64,000 nucleotides of DNA from a virus (lineage: Duplodnaviria; Caudoviricetes), in the IMG/VR virus record IMGVR_UViG_3300033153_007660, positions 1,071-65,070 of that record; one strand, 5' to 3'. Under the pieces are notes generated by a model. That model was given only the letters and a program-made list of their open reading frames with translations, did not search any database and was not told the origin of the DNA. Below are positions 459 to 49,979 of this stretch, one piece after another; position 1 is the first letter of the stretch, and each line of letters starts with the position of its first letter. Position numbers and translations under genes: made by a program.

Positions 459-794
459 ATGGCACAACACATACCAATAGATGACATTGAGGAGATAGGG
501 GTACGAGTGACCTGGGACTTTGGAGTAATCACGTCACGGTTCAATTATGCCAAAGAAGAAACAGTCGAGAATCTAGTAGCAGAAGGACTGATTTCTGAAG
601 AAGTAGGCAAGGAGTTCTGTGAAACACATACCTTCATAATTCACAAGAGGGGTTGGTTTGGAGAACTTGCAGAGAAGATATTCGGCGCGAGCGCAGGTGG
701 TTGGGAATATAAGCTCGTCAAGATTCTTGACCCAAAGAAAAGAAAAGCTCCAGCTGAACCTCAAGCAGATAGTCGATTCGACAACGTAGAATAA
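459..794 (+). CDS. hypothetical protein with C-terminal RFDNVE tail
   Basis: ATG after a purine-rich RBS downstream of the tRNA. Confidence 0.7.
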   Translation: MAQHIPIDDIEEIGVRVTWDFGVITSRFNYAKEETVENLVAEGLISEEVGKEFCETHTFIIHKRGWFGELAEKIFGASAGGWEYKLVKILDPKKRKAPAEPQADSRFDNVE

Positions 795-878
795 GCCGGT
801 GTGGCTGGAATGGTATACACAGGGGACTCAAAATCCCCGGTTCTTCGGGACATGAGAGTTCGAATCTCTCCACCGGTA
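795..878 (+). tRNA. tRNA-Leu(CAA)
   Basis: GGGGA-CTCAAAA-TCCCC anticodon arm, long variable arm, TTCGAAT T loop. Confidence 0.93.
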
Positions 879-881
879 CAA

Positions 882-982
882 TGTAGTGTGTTGACAATGG
901 GTCAGTGGCGACGGCCATCAGAGGTTCGACTCCTCAATTTGTCCTGGGCAGGGAAACGGGTTCGAGTCCCGGGCACACTACA
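882..982 (+). ncRNA. tRNA-like RNA with two T arms and no anticodon arm
   Basis: Closing stem TGTAGTGTGT/GCACACTACA; GAGG-TTCGACT-CCTC and CGGG-TTCGAGT-CCCG arms. Confidence 0.55.
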
Positions 983-985
983 GTA

Positions 986-1057
986 GCTCCCGTCGTCTAC
1001 TGGCTAGGATAGTAGATTCTCAATCTACAGAAGAGAGATCGATACTCTCCGGGAGCA
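986..1057 (+). tRNA. tRNA-Glu(CTC)
   Basis: GCTCCCG/CGGGAGC acceptor; GTAGA-TTCTCAA-TCTAC; variant T loop ATCGATA. Confidence 0.85.
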
Positions 1058-1072
1058 CAAAGAGAGAAAGAT

Positions 1073-2250: not shown

Positions 2251-2271
2251 ATAAAATAGAAGGAGAGAGCA

Positions 2272-2367: not shown

Positions 2368-2370
2368 CTA

Positions 2371-5569: not shown

Positions 5570-5644
5570 TGGGAGTGAAGGGAACCAGGTATACCTTGTT
5601 GGTCGAGAGCCAACAGTTTGGGAGTTCGACTCTCCCCTCCCACA
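5569..5644 (+). tRNA. tRNA-Leu(GAG), atypical (C33, short variable loop)
   Basis: GTGGGAG/CTCCCAC acceptor; GTTGG-TCGAGAG-CCAAC; D arm resembles that of the Leu(TAA) gene. Confidence 0.7.
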
Positions 5645-5662
5645 CAAGGCAAAGGAGAACAC

Positions 5663-6490
5663 ATGCCCGAAGAGCAAATGCATGACAACGAAGTAGAAGC
5701 AAAGAAGGCTAAGCATTACGTAGCGTTCATCATGGACCGCTCGAGTTCCATGCGAAGCTTCGGAGCGGAGGCAGTAGATGCCTTCAACCAACAGATCGAG
5801 ACGACCAAGAAGACACTCGAAGACAAGGATACGATCGAGGCAGAGGTCTGCCTAGTTACCTTCTCTTCTACAGTCGACGCACCAGAGCTCTGGTGTAGAC
5901 CACTAGAGGAAGTGCAGCCCTGGAATCAGGAAGACTATCAGCCCTCAGGGATGACAGCTATGTTCGATGCCATGGGCTTTACAATCCAGAAGCTGAAGCA
6001 ACAGCCAGACATCGATGATCCAACTACTTCTGTACTCATAATCGTCATCACTGATGGGAATGAGAACAGCAGCAGAGAGTACCAGGCAAGCAGGATCCGC
6101 CAGCTAGTCAGCGAAGCAGAGGCTACCAATCGCTGGACGATCACCTATGAAGGTGCTAACGTGGACCTCAATGAAGTCCAGGATCAGATCCATGTGGCAG
6201 CTGGGAACATGCTGTCCTTCAACGCTAGTGCCCAAGGATTCTCAACCTCTACAGTAACAAGAGGAACAGCAGCAGGTGCCTATTACTCCACCGTTGACGA
6301 GGGAGTAGATAGATTCAGAGTAAGTGGATGTGCCGGAGACCTATCAACTAAGAGCTTCTACGGAGGAACTGATGATGGATCAATCTCTAGAGCAGGATCA
6401 AGCGCAGATACAAGCCCTGACTCTGTTGTTCAGACTACCTCTGATGGTACCGAAGGTACCGACGATACGAGCGAGGCTTCTCAGGACTAA
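5663..6490 (+). CDS. von Willebrand factor A (vWA) domain protein
   Basis: MIDAS-like DRSSSM, GMTAMFDA and VITDGNENSS. Confidence 0.85.
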   Translation: MPEEQMHDNEVEAKKAKHYVAFIMDRSSSMRSFGAEAVDAFNQQIETTKKTLEDKDTIEAEVCLVTFSSTVDAPELWCRPLEEVQPWNQEDYQPSGMTAMFDAMGFTIQKLKQQPDIDDPTTSVLIIVITDGNENSSREYQASRIRQLVSEAEATNRWTITYEGANVDLNEVQDQIHVAAGNMLSFNASAQGFSTSTVTRGTAAGAYYSTVDEGVDRFRVSGCAGDLSTKSFYGGTDDGSISRAGSSADTSPDSVVQTTSDGTEGTDDTSEASQD

Positions 6491-13256: not shown

Positions 13257-14117
13257 ATGGGTTACGGCGCATATTCATACTCGGATCGCATGACAAGAGC
13301 CACGACTGATGGCCTCACCACTCGTCCTGCAAGTGAGATCTTCAGTAGAACTTTCAATAGTTCCATGAATCCCAACGGAGTAACAATCCGTGAGTCCAGA
13401 GACTGTGTGGAGCACCCAGAATCAGTCCCGATTATCCTAGGACTGGACGTGACTGGTTCAATGGGACGGATCCCTCACTTCCTAGTGAGAGAAGGCCTTC
13501 CAAGCATAGTCGACCAGATCATCAGAGAAGGCATAGCCGATCCACAGGTCCTCTTCATGGGTATTGGGGACCATGAGTGCGACAGAGCTCCTCTACAGAT
13601 CGGCCAGTTCGAGTCCAGTGATTCACTCATGGACAGATGGCTCACCGAGCTCTGGATTGAGTCCGGTGGCGGTGGTAACTACGGAGAAAGTTATCTCCTA
13701 GCCTGGCTCTTCGCCAGCAGATACACCCAGACCGATCACTTCGACCAAAGAGAACAGAAGGGTCTACTCTTCACTGTCGGTGATGAGCCTACTCTCAGAG
13801 ATCTCCCAGTTGCTGCTCAGCAAGCAATCTTTGGCCCTGGTCAGTACGAAGCTCAGACAGCTGCGAGTCTTCTTGCTGCTGCCAGAGAGAAGTTCGAAGT
13901 CTTCCACCTCCACATGCTCCAAGGTCACAACGGGGGCAGAGGGAATGTGCAAGAGGGCTGGAGAGAGCTGATGGGAGAAGACAACGTGCTGCTGGTCCAG
14001 AATCAAGACCAAGTTGTAAGTCTCATCACAAGCAAGGTCCTCGAGATCGCTGAAGCACAGGGAGTTGGAACAGCTCCTCCAGAGAGCGACACTCGCTTCG
14101 ATCACCTCGACGAGTAA
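13257..14117 (+). CDS. vWA domain protein
   Basis: LDVTGSM MIDAS, GGGGNYGESY, FTVGDE. Confidence 0.85.
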   Translation: MGYGAYSYSDRMTRATTDGLTTRPASEIFSRTFNSSMNPNGVTIRESRDCVEHPESVPIILGLDVTGSMGRIPHFLVREGLPSIVDQIIREGIADPQVLFMGIGDHECDRAPLQIGQFESSDSLMDRWLTELWIESGGGGNYGESYLLAWLFASRYTQTDHFDQREQKGLLFTVGDEPTLRDLPVAAQQAIFGPGQYEAQTAASLLAAAREKFEVFHLHMLQGHNGGRGNVQEGWRELMGEDNVLLVQNQDQVVSLITSKVLEIAEAQGVGTAPPESDTRFDHLDE

Positions 14118-16414: not shown

Positions 16415-16699
16415 ATGAAATTCAATGAGTTCATACAGAAATTACAAACAATCGGACAGATCCATGGTGACAAAGACATGGACGTTAGGGTTTCAGTCAC
16501 CAGTTCTTCTTCTACTATACTGAGTTTTGAGAAGTGGAAAGCGAAGTGGGAGAAGGAAGCAACTATTAATCTCTCAACTGGAGAGACCTGGATCCGGACA
16601 GACAGTATCGACTACGAAAGAATGCAACAAAAAATACTCAAGGTAGAGAAGAAAGGACCAGATGATAATGGTCGCTTCGATAACCTAGAGGAAGATTAA
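16415..16699 (+). CDS. hypothetical protein with RFDNLEED tail
   Basis: AGGA RBS after the tRNA. Confidence 0.7.
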   Translation: MKFNEFIQKLQTIGQIHGDKDMDVRVSVTSSSSTILSFEKWKAKWEKEATINLSTGETWIRTDSIDYERMQQKILKVEKKGPDDNGRFDNLEED

Positions 16700-24121: not shown

Positions 24122-24496
24122 ATGGCAAAGCTTAGGGAGGTTGATAAGCGACCTAAGCATCAGTTCTCTCCAGGAGACATCGTTTCCTGGAAGAAGGGCC
24201 CTGGTGCGGGTAGAGAGGGACTACTTATCAAGATACGAGAACAGGAGGGAAGACGAGGACTCCATGGATACCAGCGCTGCTGGGTAGTCTTTGCTCCACG
24301 AGAGTTCGAACTGTACCAGGCTGCCAGAAAGTATGTCTCTGGGCTTGAGGAACATGCAGAAGATGAAGTCATAGGTGTTGAGATATCTAACACCCAGATA
24401 GAGTTCCTCAGAAAGTGTCCAGATAACTGGTTAGCCAGCATATCTGCCTCGGAAGTGATGTTGCTAAGATTTTCTTACATCGCTGAAGAGGACTAA
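24122..24496 (+). CDS. hypothetical protein (KOW-like)
   Basis: FSPGDIVSWKKGPGAGREG. Confidence 0.55.
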   Translation: MAKLREVDKRPKHQFSPGDIVSWKKGPGAGREGLLIKIREQEGRRGLHGYQRCWVVFAPREFELYQAARKYVSGLEEHAEDEVIGVEISNTQIEFLRKCPDNWLASISASEVMLLRFSYIAEED

Positions 24497-25033: not shown

Positions 25034-25528
25034 GTGTTCAAGAAAATATGGGCTGCTATAAAGAGAGGCTTTGAGTTTATTTTTAACGGGAGCTTTCTGG
25101 ATAGAGGGGGACCAATAACGGCAAACTGGCCACCTCCCCCTCTTCCAGTCCCAGCCACTCGAGAGACCGCTCCTCTCTATACGATGACGATGGGGGTTCA
25201 AACAGTTGAGCCCTATCCCGTCTCAGTACCTGAGGTAAATGTTCCATGGCCATATGATCCAGACCCATCTGGTGACATAATCATCGACACTGGTGGAGAC
25301 ACAAGTCAGGACATTCTTCTAGCAAGATCGCCGGAACCAAACAACTATCTATTAATGTTCAACGACTGGGGCATAAAGATAGAAGAGAATAACCTAATCT
25401 TTGAGTATCAAGGCAGAGAAGCATGCAGGATCATAGCTCCTCCAGGAGAGCCAGTTGAATTTCCACCTGTCTCACCACCGGGAACACCACTGTCCCTTGA
25501 CAGGTTCAATGATCTCGACTTAGAATAG
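25034..25528 (+). CDS. Pro-rich hypothetical protein with RFNDLDLE tail
   Basis: ORF track; AGGT RBS. Confidence 0.6.
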   Translation: MFKKIWAAIKRGFEFIFNGSFLDRGGPITANWPPPPLPVPATRETAPLYTMTMGVQTVEPYPVSVPEVNVPWPYDPDPSGDIIIDTGGDTSQDILLARSPEPNNYLLMFNDWGIKIEENNLIFEYQGREACRIIAPPGEPVEFPPVSPPGTPLSLDRFNDLDLE

Positions 25529-26368: not shown

Positions 26369-27121
26369 ATGTTCAAGGATCCAAAGCCCAAGAAAAAGTC
26401 ACGCATCATCCATCCAAATCCCAGTAAATCACTCGAGTCTGATGAAGACGAAGACGACGACGATGAAGATGATGCTGTTCCAGCAGAAATTATAGCTAGT
26501 CTACTCAGTAAAGATAATGAGAGACTAGAGAATAGAGGGATCATTGTCGTTGGAACAGAGATTTCTAAGCTTGCTCTAGCTAGAGCTACCAAGAAGCTCC
26601 TGTCTCTTCATTTTGACAAAGACTTTGTCGACGATGTTCAGATCATCATCAATAGTCCTGGTGGCTATACTGATGCTGGCTGGGCCTTTGTAGACCTAAT
26701 GGCATTCGTTCGAATGCCTATCCGCACTATCGCCATGGGAGAAATCTGCTCCATGGCCACCCACATCTTCGTAGCTGGAGACCACAGAATAATGGCACCG
26801 AACTCTTGTGCCATGATCCATCAATTCTCTTGGACCTCAGGCGGAAACTACAGTGACCTGGTAGCAAACCGCAAGTCAGAGGACATGGAATACAAGAAAG
26901 AAATCCGCCACCTCATCAACAACAGTAAGTACTCTACCGAAGCAGAAATCAGGAAGAACGTTCTTCTAGACAAGGACCACTGGCTTACTCCAGAAGAGAT
27001 GGAGAAGCATGGACTATGTGATGAGGTCTACAAGCCTAAGAAGCAAAAGAAAACTCGATCTAGAAAAGTGGCAGCCAAGAAGAAGGTAGCCAAGAAGAGA
27101 ACAAAGAGAAAGCGAAAGTAA
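26369..27121 (+). CDS. clpP: ClpP-like protease subunit
   Basis: IINSPGG, GEICSMA (Ser), MIHQ (His), DHWLTPEE..GLCDEV. Confidence 0.88.
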   Translation: MFKDPKPKKKSRIIHPNPSKSLESDEDEDDDDEDDAVPAEIIASLLSKDNERLENRGIIVVGTEISKLALARATKKLLSLHFDKDFVDDVQIIINSPGGYTDAGWAFVDLMAFVRMPIRTIAMGEICSMATHIFVAGDHRIMAPNSCAMIHQFSWTSGGNYSDLVANRKSEDMEYKKEIRHLINNSKYSTEAEIRKNVLLDKDHWLTPEEMEKHGLCDEVYKPKKQKKTRSRKVAAKKKVAKKRTKRKRK

Positions 27122-27529
27122 GTGAGCGATATAGAACGATTTCGAGAGATGCTTGAAAGAGCTGCCCGAAGTCTAAGACCTGGTCACGGAAAGACAGTTG
27201 TCAATACCCTCTGGCAAGACTTCAACTACATGTTCCCCCAAGATGTCTGGAACTCTGAAAAGGGAGACGCTTTTCAGAAGCTGATAGCACGGTTCTGTCA
27301 TCATGGAGAGAAGGACTGTCCCATCTGTGGGAGTGACACCGAGCCAAGAGATGGGAAGTACGGGAAGTTCCATGGCTGCTCAAAGTATCCAGATTGTAAA
27401 GGAGTACGAAAAGAAAACGGAGACCCCTCCATCAACCAGGCACTTAGAGAGTATCTCAGTGGCCAGATAAGACTCCATGGTGTCGAGGAACACGAGGTCC
27501 CTGATCGCTTTACAGACCTAGAGTTATGA
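27122..27529 (+). CDS. topoisomerase-type C4 Zn-finger protein
   Basis: CPICG...GKYGKFHGCSKYPDC. Confidence 0.75.
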   Translation: MSDIERFREMLERAARSLRPGHGKTVVNTLWQDFNYMFPQDVWNSEKGDAFQKLIARFCHHGEKDCPICGSDTEPRDGKYGKFHGCSKYPDCKGVRKENGDPSINQALREYLSGQIRLHGVEEHEVPDRFTDLEL

Positions 27530-30587: not shown

Positions 30588-31116
30588 TCTACTAGGATCA
30601 GACTCCGCCAGATATGATGAGTTCTGTCCTCGTACGGGACACATCATTGATGAACCTGAGAATGGCCGCCTCATCATGAGGCCTGCCGGGTTCACCAAGC
30701 AAGACGATCTCTATGCCCCTAGGCAAGTCTACTTCAAAAGTCTCTATGATCAAGCGGTAGCAAGAGGAACAGTAGATGAATGCTTTCCTGTACTCGATAC
30801 TCTCCGTACCATCACGTTGTCCCATGAGAGAAACAACAAACACGATTGTAATGCTCTCCGTATCCTGATGCAAACGACTTTCAGGAATCAGTGGGGCGAT
30901 AATACATGTAAAACTAGCGACCTTGGATATGTTCCAAAGAGAATTAACATCAGGGTCCTTAGGCAGATACACAAGATCCGTAAGATCCTGATCTACTCAG
31001 TAGAGAAAGAAGTACATGGTAAGTACTTCGTAGCAAACCTATGCCTGGTCTATGGAGAGCCTGTAGAGTCTCCAGAACAAATCGTGATAGACAGAATGGC
31101 TGCTGTGATGGAGTAA
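30559..31116 (+). CDS. hypothetical protein
   Basis: ORF track. Confidence 0.65.
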   Translation: MMMTKKKTFSLLGSDSARYDEFCPRTGHIIDEPENGRLIMRPAGFTKQDDLYAPRQVYFKSLYDQAVARGTVDECFPVLDTLRTITLSHERNNKHDCNALRILMQTTFRNQWGDNTCKTSDLGYVPKRINIRVLRQIHKIRKILIYSVEKEVHGKYFVANLCLVYGEPVESPEQIVIDRMAAVME

Positions 31117-31838: not shown

Positions 31839-33632
31839 ATGTCAGAGAAGAATACTTCAGCCCAGGTTCCTCAGCGAATCCACTACAAAGATTCGATTGA
31901 GGAAATTGCAGCCCTCATCAAGGGTCGTGTTCCAATCATCTGGGTAGTCACTCACGAAGAAGGTCGCTTCATCGAAGACTTCGTGGAGCAGATTGCTAAG
32001 CCTCACGACAGGAAAGTCTGGCTATGGTCTGCTTACCAGGGCCTCATCCCACAAGACCAGCAGATGTCGAACCCAGGAGCACGTGCCTCTGGGTCAGAGG
32101 AAGGAACCTGGAACCCTCAGAAGGGTCTCGAGCGCATCTCCAAGATGGAGAAGCCTTCGAAGGAGTGTGGTGGCCTTGCGTTCCTCATGAGAGACATGCA
32201 TATCGCCCTGGCGGAGCCAGTGGTTCGTCAGATCAGAGATATGTATGAGTCGCTGATCAAATCAGGAAAGACTCTCGTCATCGTTGCTCCTGTCCTGGCA
32301 GGTGGAGGCGGAGGATCTGTCCCTGGCATCCCGGTAATGCTAGAGAAGCAGGTCACGGTCGTCGAGTATGAGCTACCAACCGCTGAGGGTGTCAGAAACC
32401 GGATCGAATTGCTACTACAGCATGCTAAGAAGACTCCAGTCAAGAGCAAGAAAAGCACCAAGAAGAAGACCGACTACACTGACCCTGAGATGGAAGAGTT
32501 CACCCGAGCTCTACAGGGCCTGACCCGCACCGAGATCGATGATGCCATTGCTACCTGCATGGGCTTCCTTAAGATGTTGGACTCTAAGAAGCTGATCCAG
32601 GCTAAGCGACAGATCATCAAGAAGAACGAGATCCTGGAGTTCGTAGATGCTCCAACCTCCATGGCAGACGTAGGAGGAATGGACAGAGCTAAGCCCTACT
32701 TCAAGAAGTACAGCAAGCAGTGGTCCAAAGAGGCCAGAGCCTTTGGTGTCGAGCCACTCAAGGGTGTCCTGCTGACAGGAGTACCAGGTACTGGTAAGTC
32801 TCTATTGGCTAAGGCCATCATGTCAGAGTGGAAGCTCCCTGGTCTACGTCTCGACGTAGGCAAGGTGATGACCGGTCTGGTCGGTGGATCAGAAGAGAAG
32901 ATGCGGCGCGTCATCAAGCAGCTCGAAGCTATGGCTCCATGCATCGCCTGGATTGATGAAGTAGAGAAAGCACTGAGTGGAACCAAGAGCTCCAACTTCA
33001 GTGATGGTGGTACCCTATCTCGTGTCTTCGGAACTCTACTCACATCCATGGAAGAGGGCCTGAAGGGAGTCACCCTGGTAGCTACAGCAAATGATATCTC
33101 GGCCCTTCCTCCTGAGTTTATCCGTCGGTTCAATGAGGTCTTCTTCGTTGACCTACCAGGACCAGACGAGCGCTGGGAGATCTTCGCTATCCATCTTCAC
33201 AAGAGAGGACGCGACATCAAGAACTTCGAGAAGAGCAAGGAAGAGTTACTCAAGCTCACAGATGGCTTCACAGGAGCAGAGATCGAGAAGGCAGTCAAAG
33301 ATGCCATTGCTGGAGCATTCCACGCAGGCAAGAAGGACGTTGACTTCGAGGATCTCGAGACCGCAGTCAGTGAGACCAAGCCAATCTGTAAGGTCATGGG
33401 CACCAAGGTTCAGAAGCTCAGAGACAAGGCACGTGGCCAGTTCAGGTACGCTAGCTCGTGGGCAGAGGTCACAGCAGGACAGAGAGACGTAAAGACAAAG
33501 AGTGGAAAGAAGTTGAATGTCAACGACGCCCTTGATAATATGGACGAAATCGCAGGGACGCCAAAGCAAAGACATAAGAAAGCAAAAGACCAACTCGGTG
33601 ACCGCATGGCAGATGTGGCCAACGACGAATAA
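31839..33632 (+). CDS. Ycf46-like AAA+ ATPase
   Basis: IIWVVTHEE, KRQIIKK..LEF, GVPGTGKS, WIDEVEK, TANDISALPPE, RFNEVFFVDLP. Confidence 0.9.
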   Translation: MSEKNTSAQVPQRIHYKDSIEEIAALIKGRVPIIWVVTHEEGRFIEDFVEQIAKPHDRKVWLWSAYQGLIPQDQQMSNPGARASGSEEGTWNPQKGLERISKMEKPSKECGGLAFLMRDMHIALAEPVVRQIRDMYESLIKSGKTLVIVAPVLAGGGGGSVPGIPVMLEKQVTVVEYELPTAEGVRNRIELLLQHAKKTPVKSKKSTKKKTDYTDPEMEEFTRALQGLTRTEIDDAIATCMGFLKMLDSKKLIQAKRQIIKKNEILEFVDAPTSMADVGGMDRAKPYFKKYSKQWSKEARAFGVEPLKGVLLTGVPGTGKSLLAKAIMSEWKLPGLRLDVGKVMTGLVGGSEEKMRRVIKQLEAMAPCIAWIDEVEKALSGTKSSNFSDGGTLSRVFGTLLTSMEEGLKGVTLVATANDISALPPEFIRRFNEVFFVDLPGPDERWEIFAIHLHKRGRDIKNFEKSKEELLKLTDGFTGAEIEKAVKDAIAGAFHAGKKDVDFEDLETAVSETKPICKVMGTKVQKLRDKARGQFRYASSWAEVTAGQRDVKTKSGKKLNVNDALDNMDEIAGTPKQRHKKAKDQLGDRMADVANDE

Positions 33633-33641: not shown

Positions 33642-34037
33642 ATGAGTCATTGGACAAAAATCAAGACAAAGATCAACAGTTCTGAGAACCTCAAGAAGGC
33701 TCTCGGACGGATGGGAATCGCCTTCGAAGAGGGCGAGTTCAACATTCAGCAGTACGAAGGTTCTGAGAAGTGCCAGCTCAAGGTAGATAGTGCCGTTGGT
33801 TTCTCTCGTCAAGAGGACGGGAGCTTCGCCATGGTAGGTGACTTCTATCACAGTAGCAAGCTTCGTCGTTTCTACGGTGGACGTGGGAACGAGAACTTCA
33901 CTGAAGAGTTGAATACCGCTTATGCCGTAGCTCAGACCACGGATGAGCTCGAGTCACAGGGATTCGCCTGCACAAGCAATTCTGAGGCCAAGGTCGGACA
34001 AGACGGTCTCATTCGTATGACCTACGAAAGATACTAA
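33642..34037 (+). CDS. Ycf35/DUF1257-like protein
   Basis: MSHWTKIKTKI...LKKAL..MG, VGF...DG; adjacent to the Ycf46-like ATPase. Confidence 0.75.
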   Translation: MSHWTKIKTKINSSENLKKALGRMGIAFEEGEFNIQQYEGSEKCQLKVDSAVGFSRQEDGSFAMVGDFYHSSKLRRFYGGRGNENFTEELNTAYAVAQTTDELESQGFACTSNSEAKVGQDGLIRMTYERY

Positions 34038-34203: not shown

Positions 34204-34401
34204 ATGTCACAGAAAGTAGAAGTAATCATCAATCCCAAGACTGGGGAAGTCGAGTATGGGGTTGAGGGAGTCGTCGGGGGACGCTGCACTGATATCACAG
34301 ATGCTCTGGTAAGTTCTAACCAGCACCAAGATACTCAGTATACACATGAGTATGAGGTACCAGACGTTCTACCAGACTTCATTAATGAAGGTGGAGAATA
34401 A
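34204..34401 (+). CDS. DUF2997-like protein
   Basis: I.P.TGEV...VEGV.G.RC..IT..L. Confidence 0.7.
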   Translation: MSQKVEVIINPKTGEVEYGVEGVVGGRCTDITDALVSSNQHQDTQYTHEYEVPDVLPDFINEGGE

Positions 34402-34669: not shown

Positions 34670-35545
34670 ATGAGACCCCAGACACGCCCGGCTAATCCCA
34701 CTAAGCTTCCTACTGAAGCAACAGTTCAAGAGATGCTGGAGGAATTTAGGAGTTTTCCTAGAAATCTCCAGCTCTCTACTGATATCTTTCCTACCTATGC
34801 TACAAGAAAAGTTTGGCTGGAGGCATTAGCCCAGCAAGACTTCGGCCGCTTCCGCGATGAACGACAAGCAATTCCTGCCTTAAGAGAGCTCTGTATAGCA
34901 AATCAGTTCATGGACGAGAGTCTTTCTCCTGTATTTCTCAAACTAGGAGATGATCACAGTGGTCCTAGCCTCCCAATATGGGCGAATTCAAAAGCCAAGA
35001 CTGCATACTCTCGATCTGCTTGGGGAACAAGACTACTTGTAACAGAACGGAAAGCCCGAAACGCAGAAGATCTATATATCACAATAGAAAATTGTTGGGA
35101 ACAAATCTTAAAGAGAACCATTCAAGCACAAAATGAACACTTTCTAGAATATCTTTTCAACGCAGGTTACCTCCAGCAGTTCAGCGAGAGAGAACTTGTA
35201 GAGCAAATAGCCCAGAGAAAAGACCGCTTCAACGGACCATTCTTTATACTTGCGACCACCGACCTCCAAGATTTCTGGGAGGAAACCACTGGGACAGGAA
35301 GACAGTTCGAGAACAATGATGTTATATCCCTTGGCTCCGAAGTAGGAGAGAGCTACTTTGTCTCAGGAGTTATAGCCCAGGACCAATTCAAGGTTAACCA
35401 TAACTTCGAGATCTGGACAAACCATGAGAGAATCCCACGATATTGGAAAGTAGGAGCCATGGCTATTCTTAAGTATCGTTTCCAAGAGCAAATACAGGGA
35501 CAAGAAAACAGAGAACCTTTCCATCGTTTCAACCTAGACGAGTAA
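34670..35545 (+). CDS. hypothetical protein with RFNLDE tail
   Basis: 291-aa ORF. Confidence 0.65.
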   Translation: MRPQTRPANPTKLPTEATVQEMLEEFRSFPRNLQLSTDIFPTYATRKVWLEALAQQDFGRFRDERQAIPALRELCIANQFMDESLSPVFLKLGDDHSGPSLPIWANSKAKTAYSRSAWGTRLLVTERKARNAEDLYITIENCWEQILKRTIQAQNEHFLEYLFNAGYLQQFSERELVEQIAQRKDRFNGPFFILATTDLQDFWEETTGTGRQFENNDVISLGSEVGESYFVSGVIAQDQFKVNHNFEIWTNHERIPRYWKVGAMAILKYRFQEQIQGQENREPFHRFNLDE

Positions 35546-36507: not shown

Positions 36508-36778
36508 GGACAACGAGTATCGTAGAGTAGCTTACTACTCTAACGAGGCAGAAGACTTCATAATCTCCACAGTTTGGCTAGGAATACCACATGGCTACGG
36601 TCCCAGCGGACCAATGATCTTTGAGACAATGGTCTGGAAACCAGACGAAGACGAAGAGACCTACCGTTACGGTACGTTAGCTGAGGCTTTACGAAGCCAC
36701 GAAAGACTTTGTGACGTAACTGATGACAATGTGGAAGATCCCACGAGAATGTCACAAGTACTAGAAGAGGACGACTAA
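36443..36778 (+). CDS. hypothetical protein
   Basis: ISTVWLG...PMIFETMV. Confidence 0.65.
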   Translation: MSEFFNKEGQRISLEDWMELFEDNEYRRVAYYSNEAEDFIISTVWLGIPHGYGPSGPMIFETMVWKPDEDEETYRYGTLAEALRSHERLCDVTDDNVEDPTRMSQVLEEDD

Positions 36779-37388: not shown

Positions 37389-37775
37389 ATGGTAGATACC
37401 ACAGTACAAGACCTCGTAGAAGAGGTAGCAACAAACAGAGAAGAACCAGACGTACAGCAAGAAGTTCTAGATGATTCACAGCCTAAGGTAATCCGACTGG
37501 ATGACGCCAAGGCTGGTTTTGTAGTAGGCATAGCTGAAGACGGAGAATGGATCTGGCAAACATTCGGTAAGGACGCATCACTAGATCGCCTACTCGGCTG
37601 TCTTAAACATGCTGATCGTCAGCTCAGTCTCATCTATGATACCAACACAGGACGTGGAGAGAAGAGACTTCACGAAGTAGGACTAGCGGTCCTCCAAGTA
37701 GGAGAGACACTAGCTAACAAGATGGACCAACTTCTACAAGCAGCTGGCGTCAGGAGAAAAGGGACTGACGTCTAA
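37389..37775 (+). CDS. hypothetical protein
   Basis: GGAG RBS; coupled to the RNR gene. Confidence 0.65.
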   Translation: MVDTTVQDLVEEVATNREEPDVQQEVLDDSQPKVIRLDDAKAGFVVGIAEDGEWIWQTFGKDASLDRLLGCLKHADRQLSLIYDTNTGRGEKRLHEVGLAVLQVGETLANKMDQLLQAAGVRRKGTDV

Positions 37776-43239: not shown

Positions 43240-46200
43240 CGATTACTTTGCCTACCGATGTGAGAGAGGCCTTTATGACCGAGGCTTCAATGACAATCCT
43301 GAATATACAAGTCGCCTGGAGTTTGAGATGAAGACCATCATCAAGATGGGCTTCGCTGGATACTTCCTCATCGTTCAAGACTTCATCCAATGGGCAAGAG
43401 ACAACGACATCTATGTTGGTCCTGGTCGCGGTAGTGCAGCTGGGAGTCTTGTCTCCTACTGCCTCACCATCACAGACATGGACCCAATCAGGTGGGGGCT
43501 TCTGTTCGAGAGGTTCCTCAATCCATCTCGTATCTCTATGCCTGACATCGATGTGGACTTTGAGAAGGGACCACGCGAGAAGGTAATCCAGTACGTCATA
43601 GAGAAGTACGGGGTCGACAGAGTAGCTCACATTGGTACCTTCAACATGAAGAGAGCCAAGGCCTCTGTCAGAAGCATCGCTAAGATCCTCGGTCATCCCT
43701 ATGCAGTAGGTGATCAGCTAGCCAAGCTCTGTCTTGCTCCTGTCCACGGGAAGGGTGTACCTCTGTCCGATAGCATCAAGAGAGTCCCAGAGCTCAATGC
43801 TTACCGTCGTACAAATTCAACACAAGGGGAGGTCCTTCGATGGGCAGAAAAGGTGGAGGATCATATAAGCAATGTGGGTGTCCACGCCTCCGGTGTGGTA
43901 ATCAGCAATACGGACATGACGAGCAGCGTCCCCCTGTTTCTCGGAAAAGGCGGAGAAAGAACGACCCAATGGGAGATGAACAACATCGAGGAAGTGGGTC
44001 TGATCAAGTTCGACTTTCTGGGGCTGGATGCTCTGACGAAGATTCATGATTGCGTAGATCTAGTTCGCGAACAGCATGATGTGAGAATATGCATCAGAGA
44101 CATAGACATCAAAGATGACGAGGTCTATGAGAAGCTGCGTAGCGGAGACCAGGTAGGCATCTTCCAGCTGGAAGCTAGCGGAGGTATGCAGGACCTATTG
44201 GTACAGATTCGCCCAACATGCCTTGATGATCTCACGGCTCTAGTGGCAATCTACCGGCCAGGTCCGATGACCTCAGCCTACAAGGATACATACTTAGAGG
44301 TACGCGCAGGCAATCGGCTAGCAGAGTATCTGGTTCCAGAACTCGAATCTATCCTTTCCCCAACCAATGGCTGGCTAATCTACCAAGAACAATGTTGTCC
44401 CGAAGGCTCCCCCATCTGGACTGACAAAGGTCCCGTCTCGATAGAAGACATTAAAACAGGGGACAAGGTACAGGTATGTGGATATTATGACGAAGTAACT
44501 GACACAGCCTATACTGGAATGAAAGAATGTTTAGAGATAGAAACTTCTGCTGGAGTCTTCTCGTGTACACCAGACCATAAGGTGCTAGCCTATAATCCTC
44601 TAACTAATTCAGATGAATTCATAGAGGCTTCTTCCCTAAAAGAATCACAGCTTATTCGCAAGGTGAGTATAAACCATATGTGCAATACTTCCCTTGCATT
44701 TGAGGCGGACCAGACAGACCTGATAGGAGAATCTTACCGAGTAGGAGTTCTTCTCGGAGATGGGTGTGTCACCAAAAGCTGTACAATAGCTACAGGGACA
44801 CAAGAATTTGCTGATTATCTAGCTAAGGTTTTCAAACCATGGGGAGAAGTAGTAAAATATTTTCACGAAAGATGCTGGTATATAAGTGTTAAAAGAAAGG
44901 GAGGAAGGGGACCATCAGTTAAAAAAGGAGAATTCCGGTCCCCAGTAATGGAGAAACTAAACGAGTATAGATTGTTAGGAAAAACAGCACAAGAGAAACG
45001 AATTCCTTCTTTTGTAAGACAAAGTAAATCGTTACTGGCGGCTTGTATACGAGGATTGATAGATACTGATGGCTCTGTTCTCCCAGGAAAACCATGGCAT
45101 ATAACCAGCACTTCTCCCCAATTAATCAATGATATTAGTTGGGCCATGAACCAACTAGGGATCAGTCATGTTACTCGAACTAATCGTATATACTTCAGTA
45201 ACCTTGAACAACTCCGTTGGACAGAATATGGTTTCAAGAGTTTACCTTATGAGGGCAGAGAAGATGAATCACAAGTCTATCCGCGCAAACGTATCAACTC
45301 TTTTATAGACCGAAGAAGAAAACAAACAGAGTCAATTAAAGATGCTTGTTTCAGGCAAAACTACAGTTATGACAAATATAACAGCAAGCTTCCCTGGATC
45401 AGGAAAAGCTCTATCCCTAGTCTGATACTGACACAGTTACAAATAGAAGAATCTCCATTTTATACCTATGTAAAAAATATCCAGCACGCTGGAACAAGAA
45501 GAGTATATGACATTACTACCAAGCATTCACACCAGTTCAATGTGTCAGGACATATAGTTCACAACTGCATGCACATCGCTAAGAACCTCTGTGGATACAC
45601 AGGAGCTGAAGCTGATGATCTGCGCAAGGCTATTGGAAAGAAGATCCCAGAGAAGATGGCCAAGCATGAGCCTAAGTTCAAAGAGGGCTGGGTCAAGAAT
45701 GGTCTTCCCAAAGCAGAGGGCAACACTCTATGGGAGGACATGGTTAGCTTCGCCAGCTATGGTTTCAATAAATCACACGCTGCTGCCTATGCCATGATCA
45801 CCTACCAGACTGCCTGGCTAAAGACATACTACCCAACAGAGTACATGTGCGCAGCTATGATCTCTGATGCAGGTGACAAAGATCAGATGATCAAGTACCT
45901 GGCCGAGTGCAAGAGACTAGGCATCAAGGTCCTCCCACCTGACATCAATAACAGCAGGGCCACGTTCCACGTTGACGGGCCAGAGCTAGTCAGGTTCGGG
46001 CTAGGTCCTATCAAGAACCTGGGGGCTGGCTCCCTTGATATCATCAAGGAGAGGACAGAGGGTGGCCTCTTCACAGACATCCGTAACTTCTGTGAGAGAG
46101 TAGACACCAGTGCTGTCAACAGCAAGAAGGTAGACTCCCTCATCAAGGCTGGAGCCTTTGACAGCTTCGGTGTGACTCGTGCAGCTCTGCTTGCTTCCAT

Positions 46201-47035
46201 CCCTCTCATCTGGGAGCACAAGAAGCAACAGAAGGCCTACTCGAGTAAGCTGAACACATATGCAAAGAAGCTGGCAGCATGTGAGCAACGAGAGAAAGAC
46301 ATTGAAGATGGGAAGCTCTCTGAGAAAGGGAAGAAGCTCCGTACTCTCAAGCCTCCTGTGAGACCAGTCCCACCAGCATGGCCAGAGCTATCCGAGCTCG
46401 ACGAGTCTCCCAAAGAAATCATTCAAGCGGATGAGCATGACCTCCTCGGCTTCTACGTCTCGTCCCACCCGTTGGATGGAGTGATGACAGGAGCGTTTGG
46501 CCAGAAGTTCAATGCTATTGAAGACGTCAAGCAAATGAACACTGGGACGAAAGTTTCGTTAGCGGTGGTTATTACCAAGCACAGTGAGATTACAACAGCA
46601 AAGAAGAAGAAACAAATGTCGTTCCCTACGCTAGAAGATATGACAGGGAGCATCGATTCCATTTGTTTCCCCAATGTTTATGATAAGTGTGGTCACCTAC
46701 TAGATGACCCAAGACCAATGGAGATCAATGGGAGAGTAGATGTAACAGAGGCAGATGACGGTAGAATCACTAAGATAATGATCAGCAGAATAGTTCCGCT
46801 GAAAGCAGAGATCACCAGAGATATACCAGAGAGGATAGAGACAACAGTCAAGGCAACAAGAGTCAAAGACTTCTTGGCCCTGATAGAAAAGTACAAAGGA
46901 ACTCTGCACGAGGTGCGAGTAGCATTCCAGACAGAGAGTGGGATGCAAGCAAGATGCCCAGTTGTAGTGAAGATAGGAAACTACAAGGGAGCATTTATGC
47001 GAGAGCTAGCAAAGTTGGACAATGAACACGAATAA
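43226..47035 (+). CDS. dnaE: DNA polymerase III alpha, catalytic part with intein
   Basis: GPGRGSAAGS, FERFLNPSR, MPDIDVDF, KFDFLGL, YQEQ, YGFNKSHA, C-terminal OB fold. Confidence 0.95.
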   Translation: MSQLNDYFAYRCERGLYDRGFNDNPEYTSRLEFEMKTIIKMGFAGYFLIVQDFIQWARDNDIYVGPGRGSAAGSLVSYCLTITDMDPIRWGLLFERFLNPSRISMPDIDVDFEKGPREKVIQYVIEKYGVDRVAHIGTFNMKRAKASVRSIAKILGHPYAVGDQLAKLCLAPVHGKGVPLSDSIKRVPELNAYRRTNSTQGEVLRWAEKVEDHISNVGVHASGVVISNTDMTSSVPLFLGKGGERTTQWEMNNIEEVGLIKFDFLGLDALTKIHDCVDLVREQHDVRICIRDIDIKDDEVYEKLRSGDQVGIFQLEASGGMQDLLVQIRPTCLDDLTALVAIYRPGPMTSAYKDTYLEVRAGNRLAEYLVPELESILSPTNGWLIYQEQCCPEGSPIWTDKGPVSIEDIKTGDKVQVCGYYDEVTDTAYTGMKECLEIETSAGVFSCTPDHKVLAYNPLTNSDEFIEASSLKESQLIRKVSINHMCNTSLAFEADQTDLIGESYRVGVLLGDGCVTKSCTIATGTQEFADYLAKVFKPWGEVVKYFHERCWYISVKRKGGRGPSVKKGEFRSPVMEKLNEYRLLGKTAQEKRIPSFVRQSKSLLAACIRGLIDTDGSVLPGKPWHITSTSPQLINDISWAMNQLGISHVTRTNRIYFSNLEQLRWTEYGFKSLPYEGREDESQVYPRKRINSFIDRRRKQTESIKDACFRQNYSYDKYNSKLPWIRKSSIPSLILTQLQIEESPFYTYVKNIQHAGTRRVYDITTKHSHQFNVSGHIVHNCMHIAKNLCGYTGAEADDLRKAIGKKIPEKMAKHEPKFKEGWVKNGLPKAEGNTLWEDMVSFASYGFNKSHAAAYAMITYQTAWLKTYYPTEYMCAAMISDAGDKDQMIKYLAECKRLGIKVLPPDINNSRATFHVDGPELVRFGLGPIKNLGAGSLDIIKERTEGGLFTDIRNFCERVDTSAVNSKKVDSLIKAGAFDSFGVTRAALLASIPLIWEHKKQQKAYSSKLNTYAKKLAACEQREKDIEDGKLSEKGKKLRTLKPPVRPVPPAWPELSELDESPKEIIQADEHDLLGFYVSSHPLDGVMTGAFGQKFNAIEDVKQMNTGTKVSLAVVITKHSEITTAKKKKQMSFPTLEDMTGSIDSICFPNVYDKCGHLLDDPRPMEINGRVDVTEADDGRITKIMISRIVPLKAEITRDIPERIETTVKATRVKDFLALIEKYKGTLHEVRVAFQTESGMQARCPVVVKIGNYKGAFMRELAKLDNEHE
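44393..45565 (+). mobile_element. intein with LAGLIDADG homing endonuclease in DnaE
   Basis: YQEQ|CCPEG ... TPDH ... HIVHN|CMHIA; GVLLGDG and RGLIDTDG. Confidence 0.92.
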
Positions 47036-47180
47036 CATGCTCGTCCCAATGGGAATCGGTATAGCAATAGGTGGTGGACTGCTGTGGGTACTAGTAGAAC
47101 TATGGCCTCTACTGCTAATTGGTGGTGGACTTCTCCTCGCATTCAAACAGATGATAAACCAGAACACCTAGGAGCCTCCA

Positions 47181-48350
47181 ATGATTTGGAATGATGAACA
47201 GCTGGACTTTTTGAGACAGCACCTAACATTCAATACCAAAGAAATCTATATGCTGTACGAGGAGGAGTATGGATCTGGTCACCGTAGCTACGACTCTGTG
47301 CAGAAGAAGATCAAGGTACTGCGGGACGCCTTTGATCCAGAAGAGATTGAGCACGATGATGACGATGAAGTCAACTCTCGCCTAGCCGCCTTGCTAGGAG
47401 AAGAGAGTCATCTCTATATCCCAGCAGTTACTTCCAAGATGAAGTCGCTCCTCACTATGAGGACCAAGGCCTGGCTCGAGGGAATGATTGAGACCTCAAA
47501 GAAGCTAGACTTCCCTCCTGCAAGAGCTCCAGTAGAAGGCAAGGACAGTACCCTGTGCATACTATTATCTGACCTCCACTTTGGACAACAGACTAAGTGG
47601 TATAACCTAGAGAAGGCAAGAGAGCGCCTACTCTCTATGGCTCCTGAAATCCACCAAAGAATGAGGGGCCACAAGATCGATGAGATCGCTCTAGCGATAG
47701 TAGGAGACACAGTAGAGGGAGAGGACATCTATCCTACTCAGGCTTCCCATGTACTATGTTCTACTATCGACCAGGTGATGGCATGTGCTGAAGCTCTGTG
47801 GGAACTACTGGTCCTTCTCCGTAAGCTATTCAAGGTCCCGGTGAGGGTGATCTGCGTCCCAGGTAATCATGGTCGCGCAGGGAAGACAGTATCAGAGAAG
47901 ACCAACTGGGACAATGTTGTCTACCACAGCATCCGCTTGTTGATGAGGCATTACAAGGACTCTGACCTGTCCCTAGAATGTGACTTCAATCCGTTCAGGA
48001 CCTTTACGGTCAAGGACAAGAAAGGCCTTGCCTATCATGAGGGCGTGAAGCACTCAGGGACACCAGCAATGCAAGTAAAGATTGCAGGCTGGATGTTCAA
48101 CTGGGAGTGTGACTTCATGGTTCATGGGCACTTCCATGAATGGAAGGTGGGCGACTGGAACGGGAAGATCATAGTGTCCAACGGATCCCTAGTGGGTCCC
48201 AATGACCTGTCCGACAGGTTAGCTAAGGATACTCCAGCTAGGCAAGCCTACTGGTTGGTCACTCCCGGTGAACCTCTACACAGCTTCGGCTTCGTAGAAT
48301 GGAAAGAAGAAGATGAAGTACCACATAACGAAGAAGAGCACAAACAGTAA
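47181..48350 (+). CDS. metallophosphoesterase with N-terminal HTH-like domain
   Basis: SDLHFG, GDTVEG, PGNHGR, HGHFH. Confidence 0.85.
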   Translation: MIWNDEQLDFLRQHLTFNTKEIYMLYEEEYGSGHRSYDSVQKKIKVLRDAFDPEEIEHDDDDEVNSRLAALLGEESHLYIPAVTSKMKSLLTMRTKAWLEGMIETSKKLDFPPARAPVEGKDSTLCILLSDLHFGQQTKWYNLEKARERLLSMAPEIHQRMRGHKIDEIALAIVGDTVEGEDIYPTQASHVLCSTIDQVMACAEALWELLVLLRKLFKVPVRVICVPGNHGRAGKTVSEKTNWDNVVYHSIRLLMRHYKDSDLSLECDFNPFRTFTVKDKKGLAYHEGVKHSGTPAMQVKIAGWMFNWECDFMVHGHFHEWKVGDWNGKIIVSNGSLVGPNDLSDRLAKDTPARQAYWLVTPGEPLHSFGFVEWKEEDEVPHNEEEHKQ

Positions 48351-49032
48351 GACAGGCCCTATCCCTGTCACTACCAGCCCTCGAGACACCTGTCCCAAGC
48401 GTTGCCCACTAAAGGATAGTGGCTGCTATGCTGATGGTGGACCTCTGCGCTACCACTGGGACGAAGTAAGCAAGGAAAACAGAGGAGAGGACTGGGCTAC
48501 ATTCATAGCTAAAATCAGGGAGCTTCCTGATGGTCAGCTATGGAGACATAACCAGGCCGGGGATCTAAAAGGAAAGAGCCGATCACTAAGGATTGACAAG
48601 CAAGCGCTAAACCAGCTATGCTCCGCTAACGAGAAGAAGAGAGGGTTCACGTATACCCACTATCAGGTTCTCGAACCTGGACTTACTTCGGAGTGGAACA
48701 AAGATGCCATTAGCAAAGCTAACGCTCGAGGCTTTACTGTCAATCTTTCTGCCGATTCTTTGGGAGAAGCTGATCGATTGGCTGAGCTCAACATCGGACC
48801 GGTTACTACAACGGTACCAAGCACGACAACTAGCACGACTCTACGTACACCTGGTGGCCGCAAAGTCCTAGTCTGTCCTGCTGCACGCAATGACAAGAAG
48901 AGACCTACCTGTGAGGCCTGTGGCCTCTGTGCTACCCAGCGAAAAGCAATCATTGGCTTCCCTGCCCATGGCTTTAGAAAAGCAACCATTGATCAAAGCC
49001 TTGACCGCATGCAAGCGGTGATGGAGGACTAA
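48313..49032 (+). CDS. Cys-rich phage protein (radical-SAM-like)
   Basis: NSKTGPIP, CPKRCPL..GCYA, WRHNQAGD, FTYTH, CPA, CEACGLC. Confidence 0.6.
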   Translation: MKYHITKKSTNSKTGPIPVTTSPRDTCPKRCPLKDSGCYADGGPLRYHWDEVSKENRGEDWATFIAKIRELPDGQLWRHNQAGDLKGKSRSLRIDKQALNQLCSANEKKRGFTYTHYQVLEPGLTSEWNKDAISKANARGFTVNLSADSLGEADRLAELNIGPVTTTVPSTTTSTTLRTPGGRKVLVCPAARNDKKRPTCEACGLCATQRKAIIGFPAHGFRKATIDQSLDRMQAVMED

Positions 49033-49101
49033 GTTCGTGAATGCCTCTATCTGTACAGAACAGTACCAACCGGACAATGCTCCGATAGTAGTGGACATCT
49101 A

Positions 49102-49620
49102 ATGAGAACAGACAGAACAACCTGGGACGACACCAACATGCTCATAGCTATGGTTATGGCAAGACGTAGTCCTGATCCTAATACATGTGTTGGAACCTAT
49201 GTAGTAGGGCCAGACAACAGGCCTCTAGGTATAGGGTACAACGGGACCCCAAAGGGTATCTCTCCTTCTCGTATCCCCTGGAACAGAGATTGGGCAAAGG
49301 GCTCAGATGACCAGCTAAACACCAAGTACCCGTACATAGAGCATGCCGAGAGGAACGCAATAGGTAATTCCAAGGCAGACCTTACTGGCGCAAAGTTATA
49401 TGCTACACTGTACCCATGTGACAGCTGTGCCAAGGCTATCATACAGGCAGGAATCAAAGAAGTAATCTACCTCGACAACAAGTACGAAGACCAATGGTTT
49501 ACCAAAGCGGCAGCATGGATGTTGTCAGAAGTAGATATCCACACGAGGCAACACCAATGGCACCAGTCGATTCTCTCGAACCTGGAAACAATTCAAAACA
49601 CTATTCATTCGATGATCTAG
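49102..49620 (+). CDS. dCMP deaminase
   Basis: RSPDP, GYNG, HAERNA, PCDSC, IIQAGI. Confidence 0.93.
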   Translation: MRTDRTTWDDTNMLIAMVMARRSPDPNTCVGTYVVGPDNRPLGIGYNGTPKGISPSRIPWNRDWAKGSDDQLNTKYPYIEHAERNAIGNSKADLTGAKLYATLYPCDSCAKAIIQAGIKEVIYLDNKYEDQWFTKAAAWMLSEVDIHTRQHQWHQSILSNLETIQNTIHSMI

Positions 49621-49979
49621 TTCTCTGTGGTTACGGAAGACCGAGGGACATAACAGGCTTCTCTCTTCGAGAAGCAGTGCCTCAGTTTGACTGGGCTAAG
49701 GGCAAAAGAGTAGTTGAAATCTCCTTTTCGAGAAAAGAATACTTAGATGGGGGAATGCCTAATGGCCCATATTCAATCATAATTCACTCAGTAACAAACA
49801 GAGAAGTACTACTCTCTGAACTCTACATCGTAGATATAGTTGGAGACACACTAGCCCTGATAGGCGCGGCAGACCAATCACTCATTGCATTCGAAGAGAA
49901 GATAAAAAGGATGGAAGAAGAGGAGCGAAAGCACCCCGGTCTCGTACGAATGAGACTAATGGTGCAGGAGGATGAGTAA
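49494..49979 (+). CDS. hypothetical protein (start uncertain)
   Basis: Fills the gap before phoH. Confidence 0.5.
   Translation: MVYQSGSMDVVRSRYPHEATPMAPVDSLEPGNNSKHYSFDDLVLCGYGRPRDITGFSLREAVPQFDWAKGKRVVEISFSRKEYLDGGMPNGPYSIIIHSVTNREVLLSELYIVDIVGDTLALIGAADQSLIAFEEKIKRMEEEERKHPGLVRMRLMVQEDE

Follow-up and report, generated by a model that had tools for sequence, protein, structure and literature searches.

The stretch of DNA analysed here, called the window throughout, comprises 64,000 of the 65,070 bases of IMG/VR record IMGVR_UViG_3300033153_007660 (Caudoviricetes) and is a fragment of a larger uncultured phage. Its genes lie on the plus strand until about 52.5 kilobases (kb) and on the minus strand beyond. 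Twelve of its proteins carry a short tail near the C-terminus, built on the core R-[FM]-x-x-[LVIM]. One of these carriers is a p97/Cdc48-like tandem AAA+ ATPase, and its gene stands in a row with the genes of a DUF1257 and a DUF2997 protein; DUF2997 is also found beside the ATPase in bacterial loci. The positions of the tails and of the genes most closely connected with them are given in Table 1.

Table 1. C-terminal tails and associated genes in the window, with the endings of orthologues in the relatives L001, L002 and L005 and, in the last row, a gene from bacterial loci (aa, amino acids; ORF, open reading frame)
Feature	Position	Strand	Carrier or remark	Ending of orthologue
Tail RFDNVE	774..791	+	111-aa protein 459-794, no known family	
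Tail RFDHLDE	14094..14114	+	286-aa protein 13257-14117, phrog_2971 of unknown function	
Tail RFDNLEED	16673..16696	+	94-aa protein 16415-16699	
Tail RFSYIAEED	24467..24493	+	124-aa protein 24122-24496	RFVQIVEED (L001)
Tail RFNDLDLE	25502..25525	+	164-aa protein 25034-25528; tail after Pro-rich linker	
Phage ClpP	26369..27121	+	Lys/Arg-rich C-terminal extension; syntenic with the ATPase in close relatives, absent from other tail-using phages (G001-G004)	
Tail RFTDLEL	27506..27526	+	135-aa Zn-ribbon (Top1-type) protein 27122-27529	NRFSGLEL (L001)
Tail RMAAVME	31093..31113	+	185-aa protein 30559-31116	NRFAAIMGE (L001), QRITDILEG (L002), DRLASVVE (L005)
p97/Cdc48-like tandem AAA+ ATPase	31839..33632	+	degenerate D1-like domain, then active D2 (predicted)	
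Tail RMADVANDE	33603-33629	+	p97/Cdc48-like AAA+ ATPase 31839-33632	
DUF1257 (Ycf35-like) protein	33642..34037	+	E = 1.2e-7; conserved neighbour of the ATPase	
DUF2997 protein	34204..34401	+	E = 1.6e-6, over its cut-off; third member of the gene set	
Tail RFNLDE, spacing one residue shorter	35525..35542	+	291-aa protein 34670-35545	PSRFSMIEI (L001; regular spacing)
Tail RMSQVLEEDD	36746..36775	+	111-aa protein 36443-36778	SRWWQIMNED (L001)
Tail RMQAVMED	49006..49029	+	239-aa DUF7227 protein 48313-49032	
Tail RMRLMVQEDE	49947..49976	+	ORF 49494-49979	
Rhomboid-family protein, Verrucomicrobiota	L270:4039-4929, L279:4301-4957, L307:4017-4673		about 1 kb upstream of the ATPase; Pfam scan of the L270 member only	

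Eleven C-termini of this kind had been listed in a sequence-only reading of the window, and all of them are present with the letters as first read; a twelfth, on protein 24122-24496 (LLRFSYIAEED), was absent from that list. The starts 459 and 16415 given there are preferable to those of the longest ORFs (411 and 16367), because the latter run into tRNA genes. The C4 finger of 27122-27529, the AAA domain and the ClpP gene were also recognised correctly. The label 'vWA' for 13257-14117 is not supported: this protein has no Pfam match, only the phrog_2971 assignment, and no similarity to the true vWA gene at 5618-6490. ORF 49494-49979 overlaps the dCMP deaminase gene (49102-49620) by 127 bases in another frame, and its true start is therefore uncertain (in-frame candidates are 49515, 49557, 49677 and 49755). 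The carriers are mostly small proteins without known family, and searches of Pfam, PHROGs and PDB sequences returned almost nothing for the 12 window proteins, for ten proteins each of the tail-using phages G002 and G007 described below, and for others.

The tails are located after linkers, with five to nine residues following the Arg, and the bodies that precede them are unrelated, as had been claimed: BLASTP among the carriers with the tails removed gave a best E value of 0.34. The codons vary between the copies (CGA, CGC, AGG or AGA for Arg, TTC or TTT for Phe, and GTA, CTC, CTA or GTG at the hydrophobic position), and so the tail is not a DNA repeat. From the differing codons and the unrelated bodies together, it follows that selection acts on the peptide.

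The concentration of the motif at C-termini, which the first listing had implied, was borne out by counting. For this count, 115 ORFs served as the gene set; in each region they are the longest ones on the coding strand, and a limited overlap was permitted. R[FM]..[LVIM] starting in the last 12 residues was found in 11 of the 115 genes (1380 positions), with 1.13 expected from the internal background of 16 in 19,488 positions (binomial P = 3e-8). When an acidic residue was required no more than three residues after the motif, there were 11 terminal against 8 internal copies (0.57 expected, P = 3e-11). These P values are optimistic because the motif was defined after seeing the data. The count of 11 takes in 24122-24496 and leaves out 34670-35545 (HRFNLDE), which has the shorter spacing. 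Shuffling each protein 2000 times gave a mean of 0.80 and never more than 5, and among 332 ORFs that do not belong to the gene set 3 had the motif. When gapped C-terminal patterns were tallied without bias, 'RF..L' and 'RM..V' came jointly first, with four occurrences each. A weak signal was also seen within the first 16 residues, where 4 of the 115 genes carry the motif against about 1.1 expected; three of these four N-terminal copies flank ClpP, in 26103-26369, 27122-27529 and 27526-27723 (IRMIDLEE, ERFREMLE and DRMRKVMLE).

The ATPase matched PF00004 (E = 1e-24) and PF17862 (AAA_lid_3; E = 2.5e-6, just over the cut-off) as a classic-clade AAA protein, and its best sequence matches in the PDB were the D2 domains of VAT, Cdc48 and p97 (E = 1e-60 to 1e-51). 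The AlphaFold model, with a mean predicted local distance difference test score (pLDDT) of 89.2, shows an alpha/beta domain spanning roughly residues 19-260 and, after it, the AAA domain. With Foldseek, the model aligned with D1-D2 chains of p97/Cdc48 over about 580-610 columns (E about 1e-21, template modelling score 0.4-0.64). The first domain is regarded as degenerate, because no AAA model matches it by sequence. Sequence and model thus indicate an ATPase of the unfoldase type. A flexible conserved loop, SSNFSDGG, is placed where we take the pore-2 loop of p97 to be, and no ClpP-docking loop of the ClpX type was seen in the protein. The tail is disordered in the model, with a mean pLDDT of 47 at residues 591-597 and values below 50 at 587-590 and 594-597. 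Three orthologues of the ATPase (P0054, P0067 and P0094) contain inteins, recognised by intein-splicing matches in Pfam with or without LAGLIDADG matches, and the orthologues with inteins are 749-1019 aa long; for a further one (L034:9977-12532, 851 aa), the length alone suggests an intein.

The tail was retained in orthologues, as the sequence-only reading required. Six carriers of the window, namely the five with orthologue endings in Table 1 and the ATPase, are tailed in syntenic relatives (L001-L008 and L034 were compared) despite body identities of 24-65%, and window proteins that lack the tail have orthologues that likewise lack it. In distant relatives the flavour of the tails has drifted, yet it is consistent within each record: ERFGHIDLSE, DRLDHIELA and DRLASVVE in L005, LLELEL, DLELN and NLD in L006, and IELDL and IDIDD in L008. 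The flavour is therefore uniform within a genome and different between genomes. Among 120 homologues of the ATPase (48-100% identical), R[FM]xx[LVIM] lay within the last 14 residues in 54, and many of the remaining ones had related endings such as NRFSEAV, GRKIEVE, RKIEVE, QFDDILEN and GILDD.

The DUF7227 family provides a partial independent check, because it does not depend on the ATPase as bait. Its tail was found only in close relatives of the window, with one of 76 homologues from other IMG/VR phages tailed, and is a lineage-specific addition to a widespread family. The ATPase was present in none of five DUF7227 records from other phages, four of which are at least 90% complete; a positive control was included.

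The ATPase family has a characteristic ending of its own, which we counted with a fixed regular expression, R-x(1-3)-Φ-[DE]-Φ. In 80 IMG/VR loci found with the ATPase, this ending was present in 33 of 74 ATPases (for example GRTLDL, RALDL, RTLEV and RSIDL) against 39 of 2248 other ORFs, or 19 of 2119 outside four tail-rich loci. The bacterial set also consisted of 80 loci (Verrucomicrobiota, Planctomycetota, Chloroflexota, Dactylosporangium and others), with homologues 34-40% identical, and here the ending was found in 33 of 74 homologues (RRMEF, RRKIEL, LRQMEL) against 9 of 1123 other ORFs. Three cyanobacterial homologues in this set (two from Fischerella, one from Trichormus) lack it.

The other ORFs with this ending often adjoin the ATPase. 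A DUF3150-like family of about 420 aa, upstream of the ATPase where found, gave 13 matches in 11 loci. Twelve of these matches carry the tail, namely 11 full-length rows and a 146-aa fragment; the thirteenth match is weak. The tails of this partner and of the ATPase match each other, as in SRASMLEL and RAATLDL, TRAGMIEV and GRALEV, or SRFSMLD and ARFADL. Rhomboid-family neighbours in bacteria (218-296 aa) end in RISRLEL or RIRRLEL beside ATPases that end in RRMEL, RRMEF or RRVEL, and further tailed neighbours were found in L294, L261, L303, L311 and L012. The partner's ending often tracks that of the ATPase within a locus (MIEV with ALEV, IDI with LDI, MLEL with TLDL), with L012 and L279 as exceptions. 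As a separate observation, the AAA gene of 19-22 bacterial loci (L268:8361-11327 and about 20 others) is accompanied downstream by an S26-peptidase-like gene, a TPR protein and a T2SSE-type ATPase. TPR domains can read C-terminal peptides; the arrangement may be only lineage synteny.

Tail use was found in other phages of very different size. In G007 (194,631 bases with terminal repeats, rated complete), RF..[LVIM] lies in the last 10 residues of 21 of 279 ORFs, with 1.9 expected, and the flavour is non-acidic (GRFGSLL, NRFKKLL). The huge phages G001, G002 and G003 (351, 298 and 548 kb) gave 33, 36 and 28 DNA matches to ILDL followed by a stop codon, compared with 2, 4 and 7 for reversed-pattern controls; G003 is rated 100% complete. 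In the whole of G002, 31 ORFs of 58-263 aa, mostly in arrays, were collected, and about 28 of them end like PIxxR[FL][DE]ILDL; by a filtered count, 13 carriers lie between 286 and 294 kb. The huge-phage tails are strictly terminal, with the Arg at position -7 in 28 of 33. Many tails of the AT-rich huge phages end in GATTTATGA, which contains an overlapping ATG, and synonymous codons vary between the copies here too. A scan of IMG/VR for FEILDL followed by a stop codon returned mainly the three huge phages, and elsewhere only the record of L120 had more than one match (3). Two partial records, G004 and G006 (52 and 60 kb), have three or four tails each, near the ATPase. In the Mycobacterium phage Corndog (L171, record 56311-60055), the ATPase gp96 ends in VRVLDL and a nearby small protein, gp92, ends in HRFSQLEH; Corndog could serve as a laboratory model for the tail.

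Comparison of gene contents showed that the ATPase alone is common to the window, G002, G007, G004 and G006. The window and G002 have only peptide deformylase, a vWA protein, the ATPase, RecA, PHP/DnaE, dCMP deaminase and DnaB in common. G007 and G002 have 13 families in common, none of which is an obvious peptide reader, and G004 and G006 have only the ATPase in common with the larger phages.

Several candidate readers of the tail were considered. ClpP was rejected as a universal reader, since PF00574 was not found in G001, G002, G003 or G004 and a profile of the window-clade ClpP had no match in G002. The ClpP gene lies about 5 kb upstream of the ATPase gene, in a synteny that is kept in L001-L006, L008 and L034, and a homologue is encoded elsewhere in G007; its Lys/Arg-rich C-terminal extension (…KKKVAKKRTKRKRK) is also present in L001 and L002. 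The vWA protein 5618-6490 had been considered because its MIDAS (metal ion-dependent adhesion) site might bind the acidic residue of the tail, as integrins bind LDV. Homologues are present in G001, G002, G003 and also G008, and none was found in the complete G007 or in the G004 and G006 records, so that it was rejected as a common reader. DUF1257 was rejected as a discriminator of tail use, because it is present in the tail-poor G011 too. A predicted complex of ATPase residues 1-560 with the last 40 residues of 16415-16699, run without controls, scored 0.01 against a mark of 0.32, a result that speaks neither for nor against docking.

The window also encodes RecA, a class II ribonucleotide reductase, PhoH, UDG, dCMP deaminase, peptide deformylase, RtcB and a PurA-like enzyme. 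Its DnaE polymerase contains an intein, and the PHP protein is separate. Further genes specify a primase-helicase, a reverse transcriptase with an HNH protein, a Whirly-type protein, ClpP and two AAA proteins, and no structural genes were recognised among the window genes. Twenty-three tRNA genes are scattered among small genes in the first third of the fragment (364-21600, plus strand), with the RtcB tRNA ligase gene (19259-20434) beside them. The adenylosuccinate-synthetase-like gene 14121-15251 (PF00709, E = 2e-32) directly follows the tail carrier 13257-14117; PurZ-type PurA homologues of phages produce 2-aminoadenine DNA. At 42235-47035 a 334-aa protein of its own carries the PHP domain, and the 1269-aa DnaE, whose intein has a LAGLIDADG domain, is encoded downstream of it. 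In G002, DnaE is split into at least three ORFs with tail-bearing small genes in between. The ribonucleotide reductase (37775-40678) has 967 aa, the L001 and L003 versions 652-656 aa (62-76% identity) and the L004 version 1248 aa, which suggests insertions that differ between relatives, possibly inteins. The reverse transcriptase gene (RVT_1, 311 aa) overlaps the HNH endonuclease gene (200 aa) at 22310-23807, and the pair is kept in L002 and L003. No close DNA relative was found among 50,697 deposited phages in a search with the ribonucleotide reductase gene, and a single-protein search of IMG/VR likewise returned no close relative. Among cultured phages, Corndog-like (cluster-O-type) mycobacteriophages are the nearest that encode a full-length homologue of the ATPase, at 28% identity; metagenomic homologues are 57-60% identical and lie on contigs of 159-207 kb.

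We give about an even chance to the proposal that the tail serves the AAA/DUF1257/DUF2997 module as a docking or recognition tag, shared by the ATPase and 10-11 unrelated carriers. The tail would be a short disordered C-terminal address peptide and not a structural part of each carrier. Its core consists of an Arg, a large hydrophobic residue (Phe or Met here, Leu or Trp in relatives), two variable residues and an aliphatic one, followed in the window phage by acidic residues, and it would be this lineage's version of the conserved ending of the p97/Cdc48-like AAA+ ATPase that is encoded with DUF1257 and DUF2997. The carriers would be brought to one docking or recognition site belonging to, or working with, the ATPase module, either as cofactors or adaptors that recruit the unfoldase or as substrates marked for unfolding. 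The ancestral carriers may have been the ATPase and its operon partners, with a later expansion of the tag to many early proteins in some phage lineages. We infer the single site that reads all tails, its place in the AAA module and the fate of the docked protein alike.

The sequence-only reading had proposed a docking or sorting signal, for example for a hub protein, for capsid or compartment targeting, or as a degron for the phage ClpP/AAA machinery. Its core is supported by the linkers, the disorder, the orthologues and the genome-wise flavour, and the AAA machinery comes nearest among its examples because the tail is the ATPase family's own ending; the version with a ClpP degron was weakened.

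Several observations weigh against the docking proposal. No reader protein for the tail was identified. The ATPase lacks a p97-type N domain, the N-terminal double-psi barrel to which cofactors bind: ahead of the first alpha/beta domain there are no more than about 18 residues, all disordered, and its length of 597 residues leaves no room for one. In the single-chain model the tail is not docked on its own protein. In G007 and G004 the ATPase itself is untailed and other proteins are tailed. G011 (180 kb, rated complete) has both the ATPase and DUF1257 and shows no enrichment (3 against 1.0-1.3 expected), and in the ATPase-bearing G008, G009, G012 and G019 the ILDL variant is not clearly in excess (in G008, 7 against 1 in the control); G020, examined beside them, is without the ATPase. 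Because every related locus was located with the ATPase as bait, its status as the sole shared gene is in part a product of the search, and the ATPase-less phages surveyed for tails consist of the five DUF7227 records only.

More tentatively, and probably going too far, the tails may belong to an undescribed addressing code of phages from about 60 kb to more than 500 kb and of many bacteria, in which a Ycf46-like AAA+/DUF1257/DUF2997 machine reads an R-hydrophobic-x-x-hydrophobic peptide. The same tentative reading would include that the code has spread to 5-10% of the genes in some lineages (11-12 of 115, 21 of 279, about 30 per huge phage) and that one motor decides what becomes of a whole class of early proteins, whether through unfolding, disassembly, handover or timed removal. 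Because the tag would co-evolve with its reader, each lineage would have a private version.

The docking proposal can be compared with motifs that recruit cofactors to p97/Cdc48. About 30 unrelated proteins compete for few sites on p97 through VIM, VBM and SHP motifs (consensus Rx2h3AAx2Rh for VIM and EhRRRRLxhh for VBM; SHP contains GxG), and the rhomboid protease RHBDL4 carries a VBM on its C-terminal tail (PMC5389986). These motifs resemble the tails in being short and linear, with a conserved Arg and hydrophobic residues, on unrelated proteins that address one double-ring AAA+ unfoldase. A rhomboid protein is among the carriers there as in the bacterial loci. The bacterial arrangement is reminiscent of the way in which RHBDL4 and Derlin recruit p97. 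Unlike the tails, however, VIM, VBM and SHP bind the N domain of p97, which is absent from the window ATPase, and the window tails have, at the very C-terminus, a single Arg with two hydrophobic residues, without the Ala-Ala pair, Arg run or GxG given in that source. In addition, the phage ATPase bears the motif itself, whereas p97 does not.

HbYX or GQYL tails at the C-termini of PAN/Rpt, archaeal Cdc48, Blm10, Mpa and Bpa plug into proteasome pockets, and HbYX is, to our knowledge, the only known case that can be named in which a motor and other proteins share a tail. The likeness lies in the same C-terminal peptide on an AAA+ ATPase and on unrelated proteins. In contrast to HbYX, none of the 12 window tails has a penultimate Tyr, and their endings are acidic or Leu; the distance to the C-terminus varies, ClpP is dispensable and there are 11-30 carriers per genome. 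We know of no 20S proteasome in tail-using phages. A genetic counterpart is the Ycf46/Ycf35/DUF2997 set, which is joined by DUF3150 on mobile elements: three genes stand in a row, and the bacterial homologues, 35-40% identical over the full length, share the type of ending. It differs in that no DUF3150-like gene was matched by a profile search in the window, G002 or G007, so that the window set is without the partner of the mobile-element form; protein 34670-35545 is unrelated to the DUF3150-like family.

Instead of docking its carriers, the tail could mark proteins, the ATPase included, for unfolding by the ATPase and degradation by the phage ClpP, which would allow a timed removal of early proteins; we hold this to be unlikely. 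It would agree with the unfoldase type predicted for the ATPase, with the position of ClpP near it, the synteny kept in relatives and the homologue in G007, with most carriers being small, family-less and located in early or replication-type regions, and, weakly, with the three N-terminal motif copies in genes flanking ClpP. However, ClpP is absent from four tail-using records (G001-G004), among them the complete G003 with its 28 ILDL endings, and therefore a degron that depends on ClpP cannot be the general case; the role could still fall to a protease of another kind or to a host ClpP. The ATPase is also of the classic clade and shows no ClpX-type docking loop, and a universal self-degron on it would be unusual. 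The signals read by ClpX, such as the ssrA tag (LAA-COOH) and the XB tail of SspB (LRVVK), are similarly C-terminal peptides on unrelated proteins, with an AAA+ unfoldase, or the N domain of one, as the reader, but their sequences differ, ClpX is an ATPase of another clade, and the window tags are gene-encoded and conserved. Degrons of the ssrA type have a non-polar C-terminus and work with ClpP, whereas the window endings are acidic and four tail-using records are without ClpP.

Another reading that we consider improbable is that the tail docks on a conserved host protein, such as the sliding clamp, a chaperone, a protease or RNA polymerase, with the ATPase merely one client. A phage-encoded reader was indeed not found, the flavours differ between phage groups as if tracking different hosts, and the large tail-using phages encode DnaE-type replicases; the bacterial ATPase homologues share the ending, so that a cellular reader may exist. 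The consensus for binding to the sliding clamp is QL[SD]LF or QLxLxL. The tails do not match it, as they have no Gln and their position 4 is N, D, H, A, Q, Y or L, mostly polar. The window DnaE is untailed, a DnaE piece of G002 has a different, clamp-like ending (ETVDLFA), and G004 and G006 use tails without having DnaE. Matching tails beside bacterial ATPases point instead to a reader within the module, as the docking proposal would have it.

It is very unlikely that the tail sends proteins into the capsid for injection, or into a phage-made compartment, in the manner of T4 capsid targeting or PTS1. T4-like phages have hypervariable loci of internal proteins, and the arrays of small, fast-evolving, unrelated genes with one terminal peptide in G002 (286-294 kb) would suit such a signal, as would the strictly terminal position in huge phages, which is like a signal read from the terminus. 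The T4 capsid targeting sequence is N-terminal, about 10 residues long and cleaved after Glu by the prohead protease, whereas the phage tag is C-terminal in 11-12 proteins. No structural protein is common to the tail-using groups, and a common capsid receptor is therefore unlikely; the carriers are among early and replication genes, not structural ones; and packaging into virions does not explain bacterial chromosomal homologues with the ending beside rhomboid and cellular genes. Chance, composition or a translated DNA element (promoter, terminator or coupling signal) is scarcely credible. Acidic C-termini are frequent in the window phage and the GATTTATGA endings hold an overlapping ATG, but the motif is roughly 10-fold commoner at C-termini than internal positions, off-frame ORFs and shuffles would predict, no tail is out of frame, synonymous codons vary, and orthologues with body identities of 24-48% retain it.

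Cells address proteins to machines by shared terminal tags, as with ssrA, PTS1, HbYX and the p97 cofactor motifs, and no such code has been described for phage-encoded proteins at a comparable scale. A literature search at listing level found no description of such a tag, nor of a function for DUF3150, DUF1257 or any other member of the Ycf46/Ycf35/DUF2997 set. If one peptide indeed leads to one ATPase, 10-30 phage proteins that otherwise cannot be annotated would gain a common functional context, and the tag could be used as an experimental handle and as a simple marker for carrier proteins in metagenomes. The AAA+/DUF1257/DUF2997(/DUF3150) module, which is unstudied yet widespread in phages, bacteria and plastids, would be linked to a testable mechanism. 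On the more tentative reading of an addressing code, ycf46 and ycf35, orphan genes of plastids and cyanobacteria, would for the first time become accessible to functional study.

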